Shown: piece after piece, positions 47,859-53,380 of the stretch
Layout: every line of letters starts with the position of its first letter
Position numbering within the stretch: position 1 is the first letter of the stretch
NCBI GenBank assembly: GCA_023136265.1
Contig: JAGLRN010000034.1
Coordinates: 761-64,760 of the forward strand
Source: Thermoplasmata archaeon
GTDB taxonomy: Archaea; Thermoplasmatota; Thermoplasmata; RBG-16-68-12; JAGMCJ01
Reading direction: 5' to 3'
DNA: 64,000 nucleotides
Position numbers and translations under genes: made by a program
Notes under the pieces: generated by a model
What the model saw: only the letters and a program-made list of their open reading frames with translations
Database searches by the model: none
What the model was told of the DNA's origin: nothing

Positions 47859-49015
47859 GTGATTATCTTCTCGAGGTCATCGGTCTCGAGGGCTCTTCTG
47901 ATTTCCATCGCTACCCTACGACCAGTGCTAACTCTCGACCGCCAAAGCGTGTTTCCGTAGGGGTGGCCCACCGACATGTGGACATTCGTCCCGCCGCCGA
48001 TCCTTGGCGAGACGTCGTATATGAAGAAGTTCATGTCCTTGTCCACGCACGTCTGCAGTGTGAACGGGCCTATCATCCCTGGTGGGGAGTACTCCTGCGT
48101 CCCCTTCACGTAGATCTCTGCCAGCGGGAAGATTTTCCTGAGAAGCGATTCGCGCAGCGTGGCCGAGTTGTGCCCGCAGACTGTGTATTCCGGCGTTTTC
48201 TGTTCCTCGAGGAGGGACATCTGCTGTGCGGCAGGCAAGCGGACGTGCCCGTCGAGGGACGACTCGAATCTCCAGTCGATGCCGAGCAGCTCGATCGGCT
48301 CCTCGTCTTTTTCCAGGGGTGAGTAAAAGAAGTCGAAGTTGAAGACAGGTCCGATGATGTACTTCTCTATCCTGGCGTTCTGCAGGTCCTCCTGCGTGAT
48401 AACGTCGTTCTTGAGAAGCTCCTCCGACTTCTCCTGGTACTCCGCGTAGCTCGCGGCTGTGAAGAAGCCCCTCTCCAGTCTCTTGACCTTGTGCTTCAAC
48501 TTGATGAGTGCGAGGGAATCGATCTCCTCCGGCGATTCGATCTTCTCCGGAGCGGGAAGGCTGACCTTCTCAAGGAGCCAGTAGTAGTCCTCCTCCACGT
48601 CACCTCTCTCCTCTGACCTGAGGAGATTGCGACTCCCCATCATCGGGATGGCGAAATCGTCCTCCACCGCGTCCATGCCAGCATAGGAGAAGAACGAGCG
48701 GTTCGGGATGAATATGACGTTGTTCTTGGCCAGCCACTCCATGCGCTCGGGCCTGACGGCGTCCTTGAACTTGTCGAGAACGAGGGCCTCGTCCACCACG
48801 CCTCTGATCACGTTCCCGTTGGCATCTCGCTTCGACTTGAAGTAGCGGGTGTACGGTTCCTCTCTGCCCTTCTCGCAGACAGCCACGGTCGGAAAACCTT
48901 CCTCGATCGCGCCATCGTAAACGTCCAGGCCCGAATGCGAGGCGATGCATCCGATCTTTATCTTGCTCTTGTCATAACCTCTGAGAACTTCGAAAACCTT
49001 CTCCCTTTCTATCAA
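47855..49015 (-). CDS. purP: 5-formaminoimidazole-4-carboxamide-1-(beta)-D-ribofuranosyl 5'-monophosphate synthetase (archaeal purine biosynthesis)
   Basis: IKIGCIASHSGLDVYDGAIEEGFPTVAVCEKGRE, ...PPGMIGPF... and ...SPRIGGGTN... match PurP (ATP-grasp) throughout. Confidence 0.85.
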   Translation of the reverse strand: MIEREKVFEVLRGYDKSKIKIGCIASHSGLDVYDGAIEEGFPTVAVCEKGREEPYTRYFKSKRDANGNVIRGVVDEALVLDKFKDAVRPERMEWLAKNNVIFIPNRSFFSYAGMDAVEDDFAIPMMGSRNLLRSEERGDVEEDYYWLLEKVSLPAPEKIESPEEIDSLALIKLKHKVKRLERGFFTAASYAEYQEKSEELLKNDVITQEDLQNARIEKYIIGPVFNFDFFYSPLEKDEEPIELLGIDWRFESSLDGHVRLPAAQQMSLLEEQKTPEYTVCGHNSATLRESLLRKIFPLAEIYVKGTQEYSPPGMIGPFTLQTCVDKDMNFFIYDVSPRIGGGTNVHMSVGHPYGNTLWRSRVSTGRRVAMEIRRALETDDLEKIIT

Positions 49016-49084
49016 CTCCCCACCTCTTTGGCGGCAAGGGTGTTAGCGTATTTAGAGCTATTTATGGGCAGGAATCGTAAAGTA

Positions 49085-49104
49085 TATTAGTATATTCGAA
49101 TATG
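49085..49104. promoter_or_regulatory. A/T-rich divergent promoter region with perfect palindrome TATTCGAATA
   Basis: Lies between divergent purP (start 49015, minus strand) and the DsrE-like gene (ATG 49123). Palindrome at 49093-49102. Confidence 0.25.
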
Positions 49105-49122
49105 CGTATAGAGAGTGATATC

Positions 49123-49539
49123 ATGGCGAACAAGATGACCCTGATAGTATTCTCCGGCACCGTCGACAAGCTCATGCCTGTCGGGATACTCGCAAGCGGT
49201 GCTGTGGCAATGGGGATGGAGGTGGAGATCTATCTGACCTTCTGGGGACTTCAGGCCTTCAGGCAGGGTGCTCCCCAGCAAGTGACGAAGATGAGCGCGG
49301 AATACGAGGACATGGCTCCCATGATGATGCAGCTCATGAAGGAGAAGAACATGCCTTCCTGGTACGACACCCTCAAGCAGGCAAAGGAGCTCGGGACCAT
49401 CAGGATACACGCATGCGCGGCCACCATGGACCTGATGGGAATGACGAAGGAGGACCTCGACCCGATGGTTGACGACATCGTCGGCGTGGCGGAGTACGTC
49501 GAGTTCGCGAGGGAGTCCGAGATAACGCTGTTCATGTAG
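49123..49539 (+). CDS. DsrE/DsrF-like sulfur-relay family protein
   Basis: 138 aa from MANKMTLIVFSGTVDKLMPVGILASGAVAMGMEVEIYLTFWGL... resembles DsrE/peroxiredoxin-like (COG2210-type) proteins. A conserved Cys lies in IHACAAT. Confidence 0.55.
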   Translation: MANKMTLIVFSGTVDKLMPVGILASGAVAMGMEVEIYLTFWGLQAFRQGAPQQVTKMSAEYEDMAPMMMQLMKEKNMPSWYDTLKQAKELGTIRIHACAATMDLMGMTKEDLDPMVDDIVGVAEYVEFARESEITLFM

Positions 49540-49553
49540 CTGGAGGGTTAGGT

Positions 49554-49787
49554 CTGTACGAAATCGACAGGACGGTTGACGCGAGGGACACTTTCTGCCC
49601 GGGACCCTTGATGGAACTGATACGAGCGGTGAAAGAGGGAGAGGTCGGAGAGGTCATCGCCGTGTGGTCCAAGGACGCCGGCTCGCAAAGAGACATTCCT
49701 CTGTGGATTGAGAAGGCAGGTCACGAGCTTCTTGCAGTCAACGAGAAGGAAGAGTACAACGAGTTCGTGATCAAGAAGCTCAGATAG
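49554..49787 (+). CDS. TusA-like sulfurtransferase (start codon unresolved: no in-frame ATG/GTG/TTG upstream of the conserved Cys motif)
   Basis: Translation LYEIDRTVDARDTFCPGPLMELIRAVKEGEVGEVIAVWSKDAGSQRDIPLWIEKAGHELLAVNEKEEYNEFVIKKLR carries the TusA CPxP motif and the DIP..W...GH pattern. Not in the ORF track because its first canonical start is internal. Confidence 0.45.
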   Translation: MYEIDRTVDARDTFCPGPLMELIRAVKEGEVGEVIAVWSKDAGSQRDIPLWIEKAGHELLAVNEKEEYNEFVIKKLR

Positions 49788-49812
49788 ACCCGCGGATACC
49801 GAGGCGGAAAAA

Positions 49813-50943
49813 ATGAAGAACGTTGTCGTTCTTGGTGGCGGAGTCGGAGGAAGCGTCGTCGCCAATCACCTTGCTAAGAAGGCTAAGCGCGGGGACTGCA
49901 AGATCACCGTTGTAGATGAAGACGGCAAGCACGTGTACCAGCCGGGGTTCCTCTACGTCACCCTCGGGAAGCAGAACCCCGCCAAGCTCGTGAGAGACGA
50001 GAGAACGCTTCTCAAGAGAAGCGTGGACCTGGTCACGTCGAGGGCCGAGAGGATCGACCCCGGGGAAAGAACGGTCCATCTTGCAGGCGGCAAGAAGCTC
50101 GACTATGATTACCTTGTGATCGCGACAGGCTCGACTCTGCATCCTGAGCAGGTCCCTGGCTTCGAAGGTGCCCACCACTTCTACAGCCTGGAGGGCTCGA
50201 TAGACCTCAGGAACGCCCTGATGAAGTTCAACGGCGGGGATGTCGTAATCGCCGTTGGAGGCGTTCCTTACAAGTGCCCTCCCGCCCCTGCGGAGTCCGC
50301 GTGCCTCTTGGACTACTACTTCACAAAGAGGAGGATGAGGGAGAAGGTCAACCTGAAGTTCCTGTCTCCTCTCGGGCGCGTCTTTCCCCTGGAGTCCTTG
50401 GATCCCTTGGTCACTGAGGTCTTCAAGCAGAAGAACGTCGAGGCCACGATCTTCTTCAATATCGAGTCGATAGATCCGAAGTCCAAGAAGGTGGAATCGC
50501 TCGAGGGCGAGACGGTCAACTACGACCTCCTGATAGCCATCCCACCTCACAGCGGGGCGGATGTGGTGATCGACTCTGGATTAGGAGACAGAGGCGGATG
50601 GATTCCAACCGACAGGCACTCGCTTCTCGCGAAGGGGCACGGCGACATCTACGCGGTCGGTGACGCAACCGACATACCCATCTCAAAGGCAGGCGCGACC
50701 GCTCACTACGAGGGCTTGGTCGTCGGCGACAACATCGCCGCCAGGCTGAACGGACAATCACCGCCAGACAACTACGATGGCAAGGTCACGTGCTTCTGTG
50801 ATGCAGGCTTCCACAGAGGGATAATGATGACCTTCGATTACGAGAACCCGCCAGTGCCTCCCCCGCTGAATCGAAGACACTACCTCGGAAAGATGATGAT
50901 AAATAGGCTCTACTGGATGCTCATCCCGAAGGCGAGGGTCTAG
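49813..50943 (+). CDS. FAD-dependent pyridine nucleotide-disulfide oxidoreductase, sulfide:quinone oxidoreductase-like
   Basis: N-terminal FAD fold VVVLGGGVGG. Cys in VPYKCPPAPAE (SQR-type KCxGAP-like). Second Cys pair near CFCDAGF. Confidence 0.6.
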   Translation: MKNVVVLGGGVGGSVVANHLAKKAKRGDCKITVVDEDGKHVYQPGFLYVTLGKQNPAKLVRDERTLLKRSVDLVTSRAERIDPGERTVHLAGGKKLDYDYLVIATGSTLHPEQVPGFEGAHHFYSLEGSIDLRNALMKFNGGDVVIAVGGVPYKCPPAPAESACLLDYYFTKRRMREKVNLKFLSPLGRVFPLESLDPLVTEVFKQKNVEATIFFNIESIDPKSKKVESLEGETVNYDLLIAIPPHSGADVVIDSGLGDRGGWIPTDRHSLLAKGHGDIYAVGDATDIPISKAGATAHYEGLVVGDNIAARLNGQSPPDNYDGKVTCFCDAGFHRGIMMTFDYENPPVPPPLNRRHYLGKMMINRLYWMLIPKARV

Positions 50944-51270
50944 ATGCCGCTCAACGATGAGAGGATTTACACACTACAGGCAAGTCTATGCAAGGCTCTC
51001 TCGAATCCGGTGAGGCTGATGATAATCGACATTCTCAAGGAAGGCGAGACGAGCGTCAGCGACCTCCAAGAGAAACTGGGAAGGCAGCAGTCCAACCTGT
51101 CGCAGCATCTGGCGGTTCTTCGAGGGAATGGGATCGTTAAGAATCGCAGAGAAGGCACGACGATGCTGTACTCTCTGACAAGCCCGAAGATAGTCGAAGC
51201 CTGCTCTCTGGTCAGACAGATTCTAAGGGAGCAGAGCGAAGAGTTCGGGAAGCTGATGAAGGGTCCGTAG
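50944..51270 (+). CDS. ArsR/SmtB-family transcriptional regulator
   Basis: LCKALSNPVRLMIIDILKEGETSVSDLQEKLGRQQSNLSQHLAVLRGNGIV is the ArsR-type HTH. The start ATG directly abuts the stop of the preceding gene. Confidence 0.7.
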   Translation: MPLNDERIYTLQASLCKALSNPVRLMIIDILKEGETSVSDLQEKLGRQQSNLSQHLAVLRGNGIVKNRREGTTMLYSLTSPKIVEACSLVRQILREQSEEFGKLMKGP

Positions 51271-51322
51271 TCCATCCGCGCTCAATCACGGCACGCGCAG
51301 TGACGCCATAAGGGGAAGTGCA

Positions 51323-51424
51323 TAGCCCCGGGCAGATTCGAACTGCCGTCAAGAGGTCCAGAACCTCTTATGATTTGCCGGCTGAGGCATCGAGCCTGGC
51401 CTTTGACCGCTACACTACGGGGCT
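51323..51424 (-). tRNA. tRNA-Gln (anticodon CTG) with ~33-nt non-canonical intron in the D-loop region
   Basis: Acceptor AGCCCCG/CGGGGCT (A1:U72) with discriminator A. Anticodon arm AGAGG-TTCTGGA-CCTCT. T arm GGCAG-TTCGAAT-CTGCC. Relative to the intronless copy at 53283..53353, ~33 nt (TCAAAGGCCAGGCTCGATGCCTCAGCCGGCAAAT) are inserted after D-loop AGCGG. TATA-like AAATATAC lies ~40 nt upstream. Confidence 0.6.
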
Positions 51425-51512
51425 GCAGTAGGCACTTCTCAAAAGGGCACTCCCCTGCACAAATATACTTCGCAGATGAGAGACCGAGGGAAGCATATGG
51501 CCGTGCGGTCGA

Positions 51513-53198
51513 TCACTTCGCCTGCTGTCGCTTCTGGATCTTGGCCCAAGTATCCCGCAATTGCACGGTCCGGTTGAGGACCAGCTTCTGTTTGGTAGAG
51601 TCAGGGTCGACGCAGAAATAGCCCAGGCGCTCGAACTGGAACAGGTCGAAAGGTTCGAGATTCCCCACGGCGGGCTCCACCTTGCACGAGCGGAGCACCT
51701 CTAACGAGTCGGGGTTCACGAAAGTCTTGAAGTCGGTGTCCTTCTGGCCCAGAGGGTCTGGCACGGTGAACGGTCGGTCGTACAGGCGGACCTCCGCGTC
51801 GATGGCGTGCACAGCTGACACCCAGTGTAGCGTGGACCTCACTTTCCGCCCGTCCGGGGCATCACCACCGCAGGTTTCCGGGTCCACGGTGCACCTCAGC
51901 TCCACGACCTCGCCGTTCTCCTTGACGGGCTCTTTGCACGTGACCAAGTAGGCGTTCCTGAACCGGACCTCCCTGCCCGGAGCCAGTCGGTAGAACTTCT
52001 TCGGCGGATTCTCCATGAAGTCGTCCCGTTCGATGTACGCGACCCGGGAGAACGGCACCTTCCTCGTGCCCGCTTCGGGCTCCTCCGGGTTCCTCATGAG
52101 CTCCATCTCCTCCACCTTGTCCTCGGGATAGTTCTCGAGCACGACCTTGAGCGGGCGAAGGACGCCCATGAACCGAGGAGCGGTCATGTTCAGGTCCTCT
52201 CGGATGCAATGCTCTAGGAACTCGAAATCCACGGTGCTGTGGACCTTGGCAACACCTATGCGCTTGCAGAAGCTCCTTATGGCGGCCGGGGGATAGCCAC
52301 GCCTCCTCATCCCGCTTATTGTGGGGAGCCGGGGGTCGTCCCATCCGTTCACGTATCCGTCCTCCACAAGCTCGAGCAGCTTCCGCTTGCTCATGACCGT
52401 GTGGGTGAGGTTCAGGCGGGCGAACTCGATCTGTTGCGGGTGATACGCGCCAAGCTCGTCTAGGTACCAGTCGTAGAGCGGGCGATGGTCTTCGAACTCA
52501 AGGGTGCAGATTGAGTGCGTGATGCCCTCGATGGAATCCTCAAGGCCGTGCGCCCAGTCGTACGTGGGGTAGATGCACCACTTGTCGCCAGTGTTGTGAT
52601 GGGTCGCGTGCAGTATCCTGTACATGACAGGGTCCCTCATGTTCATGTTCCGGTGGGACATGTCAATCCTGGCCCGGAGCACCTTCTCGCCATCCGCGAA
52701 CTCGCCTGCCTTCATGCGCTCCAGCAAGTCGAGGTTCTCCTCCGCGGATTTGTCTCTGTGGGGGCTCTCCTTGCCCGGGGTGGTGAGCGTGCCTCGATAC
52801 TCGCTGATCTTCTCCGCCGACAGGTCGTCCACGTACGCCTTCCCATCCTTCACAAGCTGCACCGCGTACTCGTACATCTGGTCGAAGTAGTCCGAGGCGA
52901 AGTACAGCCGGTCCCCCCAGTCGAACCCGAGCCACTTGACATCCTCGATGATGGCTTTCACGTACTTGTCCTCCTCCTTCATCGGGTTCGTGTCATCGAA
53001 CCGCAGATTGCACAATCCCCCGTACTCCTCGGCGATGCCGAAGTTGAGGCAGATGGACTTCGCGTGTCCGATGTGCAAGTAGCCGTTGGGTTCAGGCGGG
53101 AAGCGAGTATGCACTCTACCTTCATGCTTGCCGGTTCTGTTGTCCTCGTCGATCATCTGGCGGATGAAGTCGCGAGCGGGAGGCTCACCGGAACCCAT
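51513..53198 (-). CDS. glnS: glutaminyl-tRNA synthetase, bacterial/eukaryotic type
   Basis: HIGH region [46 protein letters not shown]-type VMSKRK, and C-terminal ...[12 protein letters not shown]. Collinear with, and highly similar to, E. coli GlnRS as I recall it. 561 aa. Confidence 0.85.
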
Positions 53199-53282
53199 GA
53201 TTCATCACCTTTGCTGTCCCCGTCGTGGGAACTCCTTAATCGGGAGTGGTGTAGTTATATGTATTGGGATTGGAGCGGGAGA

Positions 53283-53353
53283 TAGCCCCGACCGGATTTG
53301 AACCGGTGCCAAGAGGTCCAGAGCCTCTTATGCTGCCGCTACACCACGGGGCT
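53283..53353 (-). tRNA. tRNA-Gln (anticodon CTG), intronless
   Basis: Acceptor AGCCCCG/CGGGGCT, D stem GUGU/GCAU, anticodon arm AGAGG-CTCTGGA-CCTCT, T arm ACCGG-TTCAAAT-CCGGT, discriminator A. 71 nt, no encoded CCA. Confidence 0.75.
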
Positions 53354-53380
53354 AGTGCGCAGAAATAAGCCACGATTGGC

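Follow-up and report, generated by a model that had tools for sequence, protein, structure and literature searches.

In this study, we explored the sulfur-handling gene cluster at 49123-51270 of a 64-kb stretch of DNA from a Thermoplasmata archaeon (contig JAGLRN010000034.1), called here the window, to whose positions all coordinates refer. Reading of the DNA and an open reading frame (ORF) listing of 48800-51600 place four co-directional genes in the cluster, coding for a DsrE-like protein, a TusA protein, a flavoprotein resembling sulfide:quinone oxidoreductase (SQR) of type III, plus an ArsR-type regulator. Our findings support a model where TusA is a separate protein of 77 amino acids (aa), probably initiated at a rare near-cognate codon, CTG 49554-56. 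We see in it a well-supported case of an unusual, rarely used start codon, together with a misannotation that recurs, within a known kind of operon, and not a new kind of system.

The TusA frame, offset by -1 relative to DsrE, is open from 49473, after the TGA at 49470-72, and runs open for 27 codons 5' of CTG 49554. Between this TGA and the catalytic Cys codon (49596-98) a scripted inventory of start codons found no ATG, GTG or TTG; the earliest canonical starts in the frame, TTG 49608 and ATG 49611, both lie 3' of that codon, the TGC of an FCPGP motif. The initial annotation had said as much, describing a frame without canonical start and with canonical codons only internally, after the active-site Cys, and its coordinates and frames (DsrE stop at 49537-39, TusA offset by -1 and open from 49473) were reproduced by script. 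Of the near-cognate codons of translation table 11, only CTG 49554 and ATC 49563 stand 5' of the Cys. The elements of the junction are as follows.

49123-49539, + strand: DsrE-like sulfur-carrier gene, 138 aa, DrsE_2 family (PF13686), stop TAG 49537-39
49542-49546, + strand: Shine-Dalgarno sequence (SD) GGAGG of TusA, 7 nucleotides (nt) before CTG 49554
49548-49550, + strand: TTA, two codons 5' of the CTG, not a start codon in the window; some relatives have ATG, GTG or TTG here
49554-49556, + strand: CTG, proposed TusA initiation codon, the sole near-cognate at SD distance
49554-49787, + strand: proposed TusA coding sequence of 77 aa, ending with TAG 49785-87; TGC 49596-98 encodes the catalytic Cys

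The spacer between GGAGG (49542-46) and CTG 49554 is thus 7 nt long, and the DsrE stop lies 14 nt upstream of the CTG. In the window genes with an SD of at least GAGG (n=8), the core stands 7-9 nt before the start, 7 being most frequent; TTA 49548 is only 1 nt, and ATC 49563 is 16 nt, from GGAGG.

The start region was compared across 44 related loci from about ten lineages, gathered by a genome-collection scan with the SQR protein, by exact-protein look-ups and from one metagenome pattern hit (a degenerate DNA pattern for the TusA N-terminal coding region, scanned against JGI metagenome contigs, found one contig only, L017). Junctions were aligned codon by codon, position 0 being the codon homologous to window 49554 and position -2 lying two codons upstream. 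The states at both positions are listed below, loci being given by our own numbers.

Window species: -2 TTA, position 0 CTG or TTG
L041: -2 ACT, position 0 CTG
L011: -2 GTG, position 0 CTG
L012: -2 ATG, position 0 CTG
L013-15: -2 ATG, position 0 CTG
L042/43: -2 ATG, position 0 CTG
L003: -2 TTG, position 0 CTG
L020: -2 GTC, position 0 GTG
L044: -2 TTG, position 0 TTG
L016: -2 ATG, position 0 TTG
L018: -2 ATA, position 0 TTG

Position 0 is CTG, TTG or GTG at every locus (CTG in most lineages, GTG in one), and CTC, CTT, CTA and TTA were never seen there. Position -2 varies freely (TTA, ACT, GTG, ATG, GTC, TTG or ATA), and so, like a spacer, does position -1 (GGT, CGT, GAC, GTC, GAA, CAA, GTA or AGA). 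At an ordinary internal codon the position-0 pattern would have a chance of about 1e-4 if the ten or so lineages were independent, a rough figure, the lineages being related. GGAGG followed by G or C is invariant in nearly all clade loci (GGGGG in L041), and its 7-nt spacing to position 0 is conserved. Across divergences at which synonymous sites are saturated, position 0 remains CTG in most lineages of the clade and is never ATG, despite this near-invariant strong SD. Non-canonical initiation had been among the options of the initial annotation, with a comparison of orthologous loci proposed as a check; the optimally spaced GGAGG before CTG 49554 and the NTG found at position 0 throughout the related lineages favour it.

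Individual relatives add to this picture. L018 must initiate at position 0, because a stop lies five codons upstream and the TTG at position 0 is the sole start available. L041, a separate species at a synonymous divergence (dS) of 0.95 from the window, has no canonical start from the upstream stop to the internal ATG, and carries CTG at position 0 (junction at 1914-1931 of Ga0452210_001319, with SD GGGGG and DsrE stop TGA); its TusA shows a ratio of nonsynonymous to synonymous divergence (dN/dS) of 0.06, and its first 19 codons differ from those of the window by six substitutions, all six synonymous. Within the window species (TusA 97-100% identical), 16 contigs read GGAGGG TTA GGT CTG and eight read GGAGGG TTA GGT TTG, so that CTG and TTG alleles coexist, with TTG in about a third of the contigs. 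In a neighbour-joining tree of these alleles with the codon masked, a tree of low resolution and open to recombination, the outgroup state at position 0 is CTG and the TTG alleles fall at two or three derived places.

That TusA is a real gene is indicated by its substitution pattern. Its variable codons within the window species comprise 16 synonymous and three nonsynonymous ones; the 19 codons 5' of the first internal ATG, which encode among others the peptide TVDARDTFCPGPL (within residues 1-19), show four synonymous changes and no nonsynonymous one. Pairwise dN/dS to other lineages is 0.03-0.07 (dS 1 or more), and synonymous sites are saturated between the window lineage and L012/L013. Because dN/dS is low and the N-terminal changes are all synonymous, we conclude that TusA is translated and under selection, the start-less part included. 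A sequencing or assembly error (indel or substitution) behind the missing start, or a TusA decaying to a pseudogene in this lineage, is extremely improbable on these data: TTG could be regained by one C-to-T change and is indeed present in some contigs of the species, yet the identical CTG junction recurs in at least 16 contigs that differ in sample, assembler and database (independent assemblies from NCBI, ENA, JGI and Logan), and CTG recurs in the separate species L041, the frame is undisrupted, and dN/dS has stayed at 0.03-0.06 with dS reaching about 1 since the L041 split. The indel or sequencing error that the initial annotation had also considered falls with this, given the same junction in many independent assemblies and the like state of L041. 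The same 19 codons bear on whether a truncated product of 58 or 59 aa, from ATG 49611 or TTG 49608, is the only one. The frame has no earlier canonical start than these two, they are picked by Prodigal-type callers and some runs of the NCBI Prokaryotic Genome Annotation Pipeline (PGAP), and 64 blocks of the collection list the 58-aa protein (P0122); such a product, however, would lack the CPxP Cys and the first beta-strand of the fold, no SD precedes 49608 or 49611, and strict purifying selection acts on the 19 codons upstream (four synonymous to no nonsynonymous changes in the species, six to none against L041). We regard it as highly unlikely.

A further option of the initial annotation was translation continuing from DsrE by frameshifting, and a programmed -1 ribosomal frameshift near the DsrE end, giving a DsrE-TusA fusion, would accord with the -1 offset of TusA and with the 27 codons open 5' of the CTG. 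Against it, neither an X XXY YYZ heptamer nor a homopolymer run of at least four occurs in 49470-49556, RNA folding of 49500-49620 is no better than for shuffled sequence (z=0.70), and Rfam gives no hit in the cluster. Moreover, the TusA frame is closed 5-11 codons upstream in the relatives L011, L013, L003, L016, L018 and L044, the 120 TusA homologues listed are all 74-90 aa long with no fusion, and the conserved GGAGG would have no purpose. With neither slippery heptamer nor significant RNA structure, and with the frame closed in relatives and fusion homologues wanting, we give frameshifting hardly any credence. Initiation at ATC 49563, three codons 3' of the CTG, with a 74-aa product, deserves slightly more weight and is still improbable. 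ATC is a table-11 near-cognate, the 74-aa product still contains all of the Pfam TusA domain (residue 6 onwards), and PGAP chose it in three metagenome-assembled genome (MAG) records of the window species (P0002); but on identical DNA in other MAGs PGAP took the CTG, the ATC lies 16 nt after GGAGG, beyond the 7-9 nt of the other SD-led genes, ATC and ATA interchange at this codon as they would at any Ile codon, even within the species (L001), and the TTG/GTG/CTG pattern three codons upstream would be left unaccounted for. Two other candidates were tried and rejected. TTA 49548 has two mismatches to AUG, so it is not near-cognate, and is 1 nt from the SD. Read-through or pyrrolysine decoding at the DsrE stop TAG meets a second in-frame TAG three codons on, and relatives use TGA or TAA.

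Initiation at CTG 49554 is likely and is the reading we prefer: GGAGG at 49542-46 would position the ribosome on the CTG, the CUG would presumably be decoded as Met by the initiator tRNA (Met-tRNAi), and TusA initiation may be helped by ribosomes that have just finished DsrE at its stop, 14 nt upstream. A weak start of this kind might keep TusA output low, or tie it to DsrE translation. The PGAP start call is this same CTG (protein MYEID...) in L021, L023, L024, L011 and L003. Elsewhere the infC gene of Escherichia coli starts at AUU and follows an autoregulatory logic. Such bacterial starts other than AUG, GUG and UUG (infC AUU and rare annotated CTG) resemble the window in pairing a near-cognate codon with a strong SD; the window case differs in being archaeal, with eukaryote-like initiation factors, in being kept in several species and not a one-off, and, unlike infC, in having no known autoregulatory logic. 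According to Belinky et al. (PMC5622118), SDs are as a tendency stronger or better conserved where the start is not AUG, and switches to a CUG start are extremely rare, that from UUG being recorded for 1/2,468 starts; in E. coli, CUG initiation reaches about 0.1-3% of that of AUG (bioRxiv 10.1101/063800).

Several points weigh against the CTG start. CUG is missing from the archaeal start codons named in a review of 2020, which are AUG, GUG and UUG (PMC7531240), and our literature searches for archaeal CUG/CTG start codons gave no precedent. In the window CTC is the commonest Leu codon (41%), CTG makes up about 33%, CTG and TTG together about 42% and TTA 0.8%, GTG being about 28% of Val codons; since CTG is so common a Leu codon, its conservation where ATG, GTG or TTG sits at -2 may be partly chance. 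Where the -2 codon is not canonical, position 0 is by tendency TTG or GTG (L018 and L020), a pattern that also fits an ancestral start at -2 with CTG a mere fallback. Finally, termination-reinitiation in model organisms drops by 40-80% when the gap is 14 nt, with gene-specific variation (PMC10666635), so that coupling to DsrE translation, while possible, may contribute little. Within the window itself, a list of GGAGG followed by a near-cognate codon was uninformative, because genes contain GGAGG often (290 sites); a stricter scan, for ORFs in which no start but a near-cognate one is served by an SD, returned 15 entries (14 ORFs), TusA among them, and the five of these ORFs that were checked had no Pfam match, thus giving no sign of widespread CTG starts in this stretch.

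The fallback history can be spelled out. The ancestral start would have been an ATG, GTG or TTG at -2, lost in the window lineage (TTA) and in L041 (ACT), and CTG would be a mildly deleterious substitute, repaired by CTG-to-TTG changes. A canonical -2 codon is indeed present in L012, L013, L042, L016, L011, L003 and L044, of the lineages without one, L018 and L020 show TTG or GTG at position 0, and the TTG alleles are derived and scattered within the window species. On the other hand, the -2 codon begins only 1 nt after GGAGG, it also reads GTC, ATA, ACT and TTA, and CTG-only alleles persist in two species over a dS of about 1 under strong purifying selection. This history is conceivable, though we incline against it. 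We put no greater trust in the opposite proposal, that CUG is in these Archaea a long-maintained, selected initiation codon whose weakness serves as a translational throttle on TusA, and offer it tentatively. Both histories, position 0 as the start all along or as a fallback, fit the data and place initiation in the window at 49554; they differ on whether CUG is actively maintained.

The CTG start also makes sense of a conspicuous inconsistency in public annotation. The same TusA gene has been deposited as 58 aa (P0122, the commonest form), 59 aa, 74 aa (from ATC, P0002) and 77 aa (P0123, MYEID...), and across the protein clusters P0002 and P0121-P0131 identical or near-identical DNA is annotated differently by different pipelines, even by different runs of one pipeline. 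NCBI records whose DNA has the CTG do carry the 77-aa form (e.g. L021, L023, L024), and PGAP took the CTG in L011 and L003 despite a GTG or TTG two codons upstream. A CTG start without canonical alternative would explain why TusA is truncated and Cys-less in most public databases.

As proposed, the protein is a convincing member of its family. Domain calls were made by profile search (Pfam, NCBIfam), and the scans gave matches for all four products, so that the gene assignments of the initial annotation (DsrE-like, TusA, SQR-like, ArsR) hold. TusA matches PF01206 at 72.5 bits (gathering cutoff 28.6), its residues 6-75, as numbered from CTG 49554, covering the entire profile (positions 1-70 of 70), and the catalytic Cys of its CPxP motif (FCPGP), near the N-terminus, is kept in all homologues inspected. 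By analogy with characterised relatives, TusA would be a sulfur carrier that binds sulfur as a persulfide on this Cys. It scores 42.1 bits with the E. coli-type TusA equivalog model NF001423, below the cutoff of 78. Among solved structures the closest match (E=1.6e-24) is Thermoplasma acidophilum Ta1170/Ta1414 (1PAV), which aligns from its residue 5 onwards and whose 78 aa are close to the 77 aa counted from the CTG; the two share the motif DAR-x-x-x-CPGPLMELI. Ta1170/Ta1414 is a protein of uncharacterised function, and the window gene, in contrast, is the one without a canonical start.

The remaining features of the cluster are the following.

49079-49089, + strand: A/T-rich box AAAGTATATTA, putative archaeal promoter element (transcription factor B recognition element, BRE/TATA) of the operon
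49090-49105, unstranded: palindrome GTATATTCGAATATGC with a perfect 12-bp core at 49092-49103, putative operator of the ArsR-type repressor
49813-50943, + strand: type III SQR-like flavoprotein, 376 aa (NF049943 and human SQOR alignment)
50944-51270, + strand: ArsR/SmtB-family regulator, 108 aa, its ATG immediately after the SQR stop

The best explanation of this layout is that dsrE-like, tusA, type III sqr and arsR form one predicted operon. The DsrE-like protein matches PF13686 (DrsE_2) at 104.7 bits (cutoff 25) and the DsrE2 equivalog model NF047629 at 64.1 bits, below the cutoff of 210; its nearest solved structure is 2QS7 (E=1.6e-40), and the Cys of its H-A/G-C-A motif (HACA in the window) is kept in all orthologues. 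Its start is ATG 49123 and not ATG 49102, because orthologues begin MANKMT or MADKMS. The flavoprotein, whose gene has GAGG 8 nt before its ATG, contains Pyr_redox_2 and FCSD_central domains and begins with VVLGGGVGG, an FAD (flavin adenine dinucleotide)-binding GxGxxG motif; it matches the NCBIfam type III SQR model NF049943 (selenoprotein subtype) along profile positions 1-387 of 406 with 368 bits, the subtype cutoff being 525. When it is aligned to human SQOR (E=7e-46), KCPPAP and VTCFC stand opposite PVKCAGAP and YTSCPL, which we take to be the Cys201 and Cys379 motifs, so that both SQR cysteines are aligned.

The regulator matches HTH_5 at 48.9 bits, NCBIfam HTH_metalloreg at 87.9 bits and the BigR model at 71 bits, below its cutoff of 155, and is homologous to BigR (3PQJ, E=7e-15) and SqrR (6O8K, E=4e-14). 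In the alignment to these two structures the sensing Cys pair of BigR/SqrR was not found in the window protein: MLVCTL of BigR and MIMCYL of SqrR align with MIIDIL, which places Asp29 at the first sensing Cys (RLM(L/I)xC, helix 2). The window protein has instead Cys16 and Cys87, both kept in the L012 orthologue (66% identical), and to judge from this conservation they could form a different thiol-based site that might sense sulfane sulfur or oxidation. Upstream of the operon, the box AAAGTATATTA aligns as AAAG-nTTATTA in the window species, L012, L013 and L003 and stands directly 5' of the palindrome. GTATATTCGAATATGC, 18 nt 5' of the DsrE ATG, is unique in the window at up to one mismatch (0.06 expected), and its place is taken in L012 and L013 by a palindrome perfect over 16 bp, GGATATTCGAATATCC; synonymous sites of the adjacent TusA are saturated between these lineages. 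The palindrome at 49090-49105 is thus a plausible candidate operator, overlapping the promoter, of the presumably co-transcribed ArsR-type repressor. A scan for Sigma-70 promoters and terminators gave chance-level hits only, its models not being applicable to archaea.

Two observations on related clusters may be added. In L011 (2825-3013 of JBHIBK010000064.1) the DsrE-like gene has an internal deletion that leaves a 62-aa remnant without the Cys region, the frame of which runs across the TusA start; TusA of L011 is intact and under selection. Distant orthologous DsrE-TusA-SQR clusters occur in Methanomassiliicoccales and related MAGs (L005-L009), with an ordinary TusA ATG three codons 5' of the CTG-homologous position and SDs of GAGGTG or GGTGG; tblastn found no ArsR homologue in these loci.

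In functional terms, homology and analogy lead us to predict that SQR oxidises sulfide to sulfane sulfur, passing electrons to quinone, that TusA (through the Cys of FCPGP) and the DsrE-like protein (through the Cys of HACA) would carry this sulfur as persulfides, and that the ArsR-type protein would repress the operon at the palindrome 49090-49105. Parallels exist at several levels. E. coli TusA and the DsrE-TusA relays share with the window the TusA fold, the catalytic CPxP Cys and the pairing with a Cys protein of the DsrE family; their partners, however, are Hdr, Dsr or tRNA-thiolation genes, whereas that of the window is SQR, and neither window protein is an equivalog. DsrE3A-TusA of Metallosphaera cuprina reportedly transfers thiosulfate. 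The likeness to DsrE-TusA thiosulfate-transfer modules of sulfur-oxidising archaea proposed in the initial annotation stands as an approximation only, the DsrE-like protein being of the DrsE_2 family and not a DsrE2 or DsrE3 equivalog. The BigR/SqrR and cst systems similarly set a small repressor gene alongside SQR and sulfurtransferase genes, the persulfide-regulated cst operon of Staphylococcus aureus being under the control of CstR; BigR and SqrR differ in that their first sensing Cys is Asp29 in the window protein, which has the pair Cys16/Cys87. The closest described arrangement is that of Methylacidiphilum fumariolicum SolV, in which MFUM_v2_0219-0221 (type III SQR, a TusA homologue and a DsrE2-like protein) are upregulated by H2S and were proposed to serve sulfide detoxification (PMC10205796). 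The same three families are adjacent there, with the same proposed sulfide oxidation or detoxification and hand-off of sulfane sulfur; compared by description, that operon is bacterial, has a different gene order and is reported with neither an ArsR gene nor an unusual start. The gene module of type III SQR, TusA and DsrE-like protein is accordingly one already described as a sulfide-detoxification operon.

Downstream of the cluster, a gene for a glutaminyl-tRNA synthetase (GlnRS)-like protein (51513-53198, - strand, 561 aa; tRNA-synt_1c domains in the L012 orthologue) lies between two tRNA-Gln(CUG) genes; to our knowledge, most archaea have no GlnRS. One of the tRNA genes, at 53281-53354 (- strand), is standard (Rfam 62 bits). 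The other, at 51323-51426 (- strand), is missed by Rfam and reported by ARAGORN only as 51323-51397; visual inspection shows that its acceptor stem pairs (AGCCCCG/CGGGGCT) and that some 30 additional nt separate the D-arm from the anticodon stem, from which it probably contains a non-canonical intron.

Overall, the operon brings an archaeal case to the sulfide-handling modules of type III SQR, TusA and DsrE-like protein, one that includes an ArsR-type regulator. As the 58-aa form lacks the catalytic Cys, a functional sulfur carrier may be overlooked or misjudged when the metabolism of these sediment Thermoplasmata is reconstructed. Prokaryotes very rarely have conserved CUG starts, and the CTG and TTG alleles within one species, together with GTG in a relative, provide natural alleles for the study of near-cognate initiation in an archaeal system. 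Should the tentative proposal of a selected translational throttle hold, a low ratio of TusA to DsrE and SQR could be fixed, or TusA could depend on DsrE translation or on initiation-factor stringency, and these loci would represent the first comparative case of functional CUG initiation by the eukaryote-like initiation machinery of Archaea.

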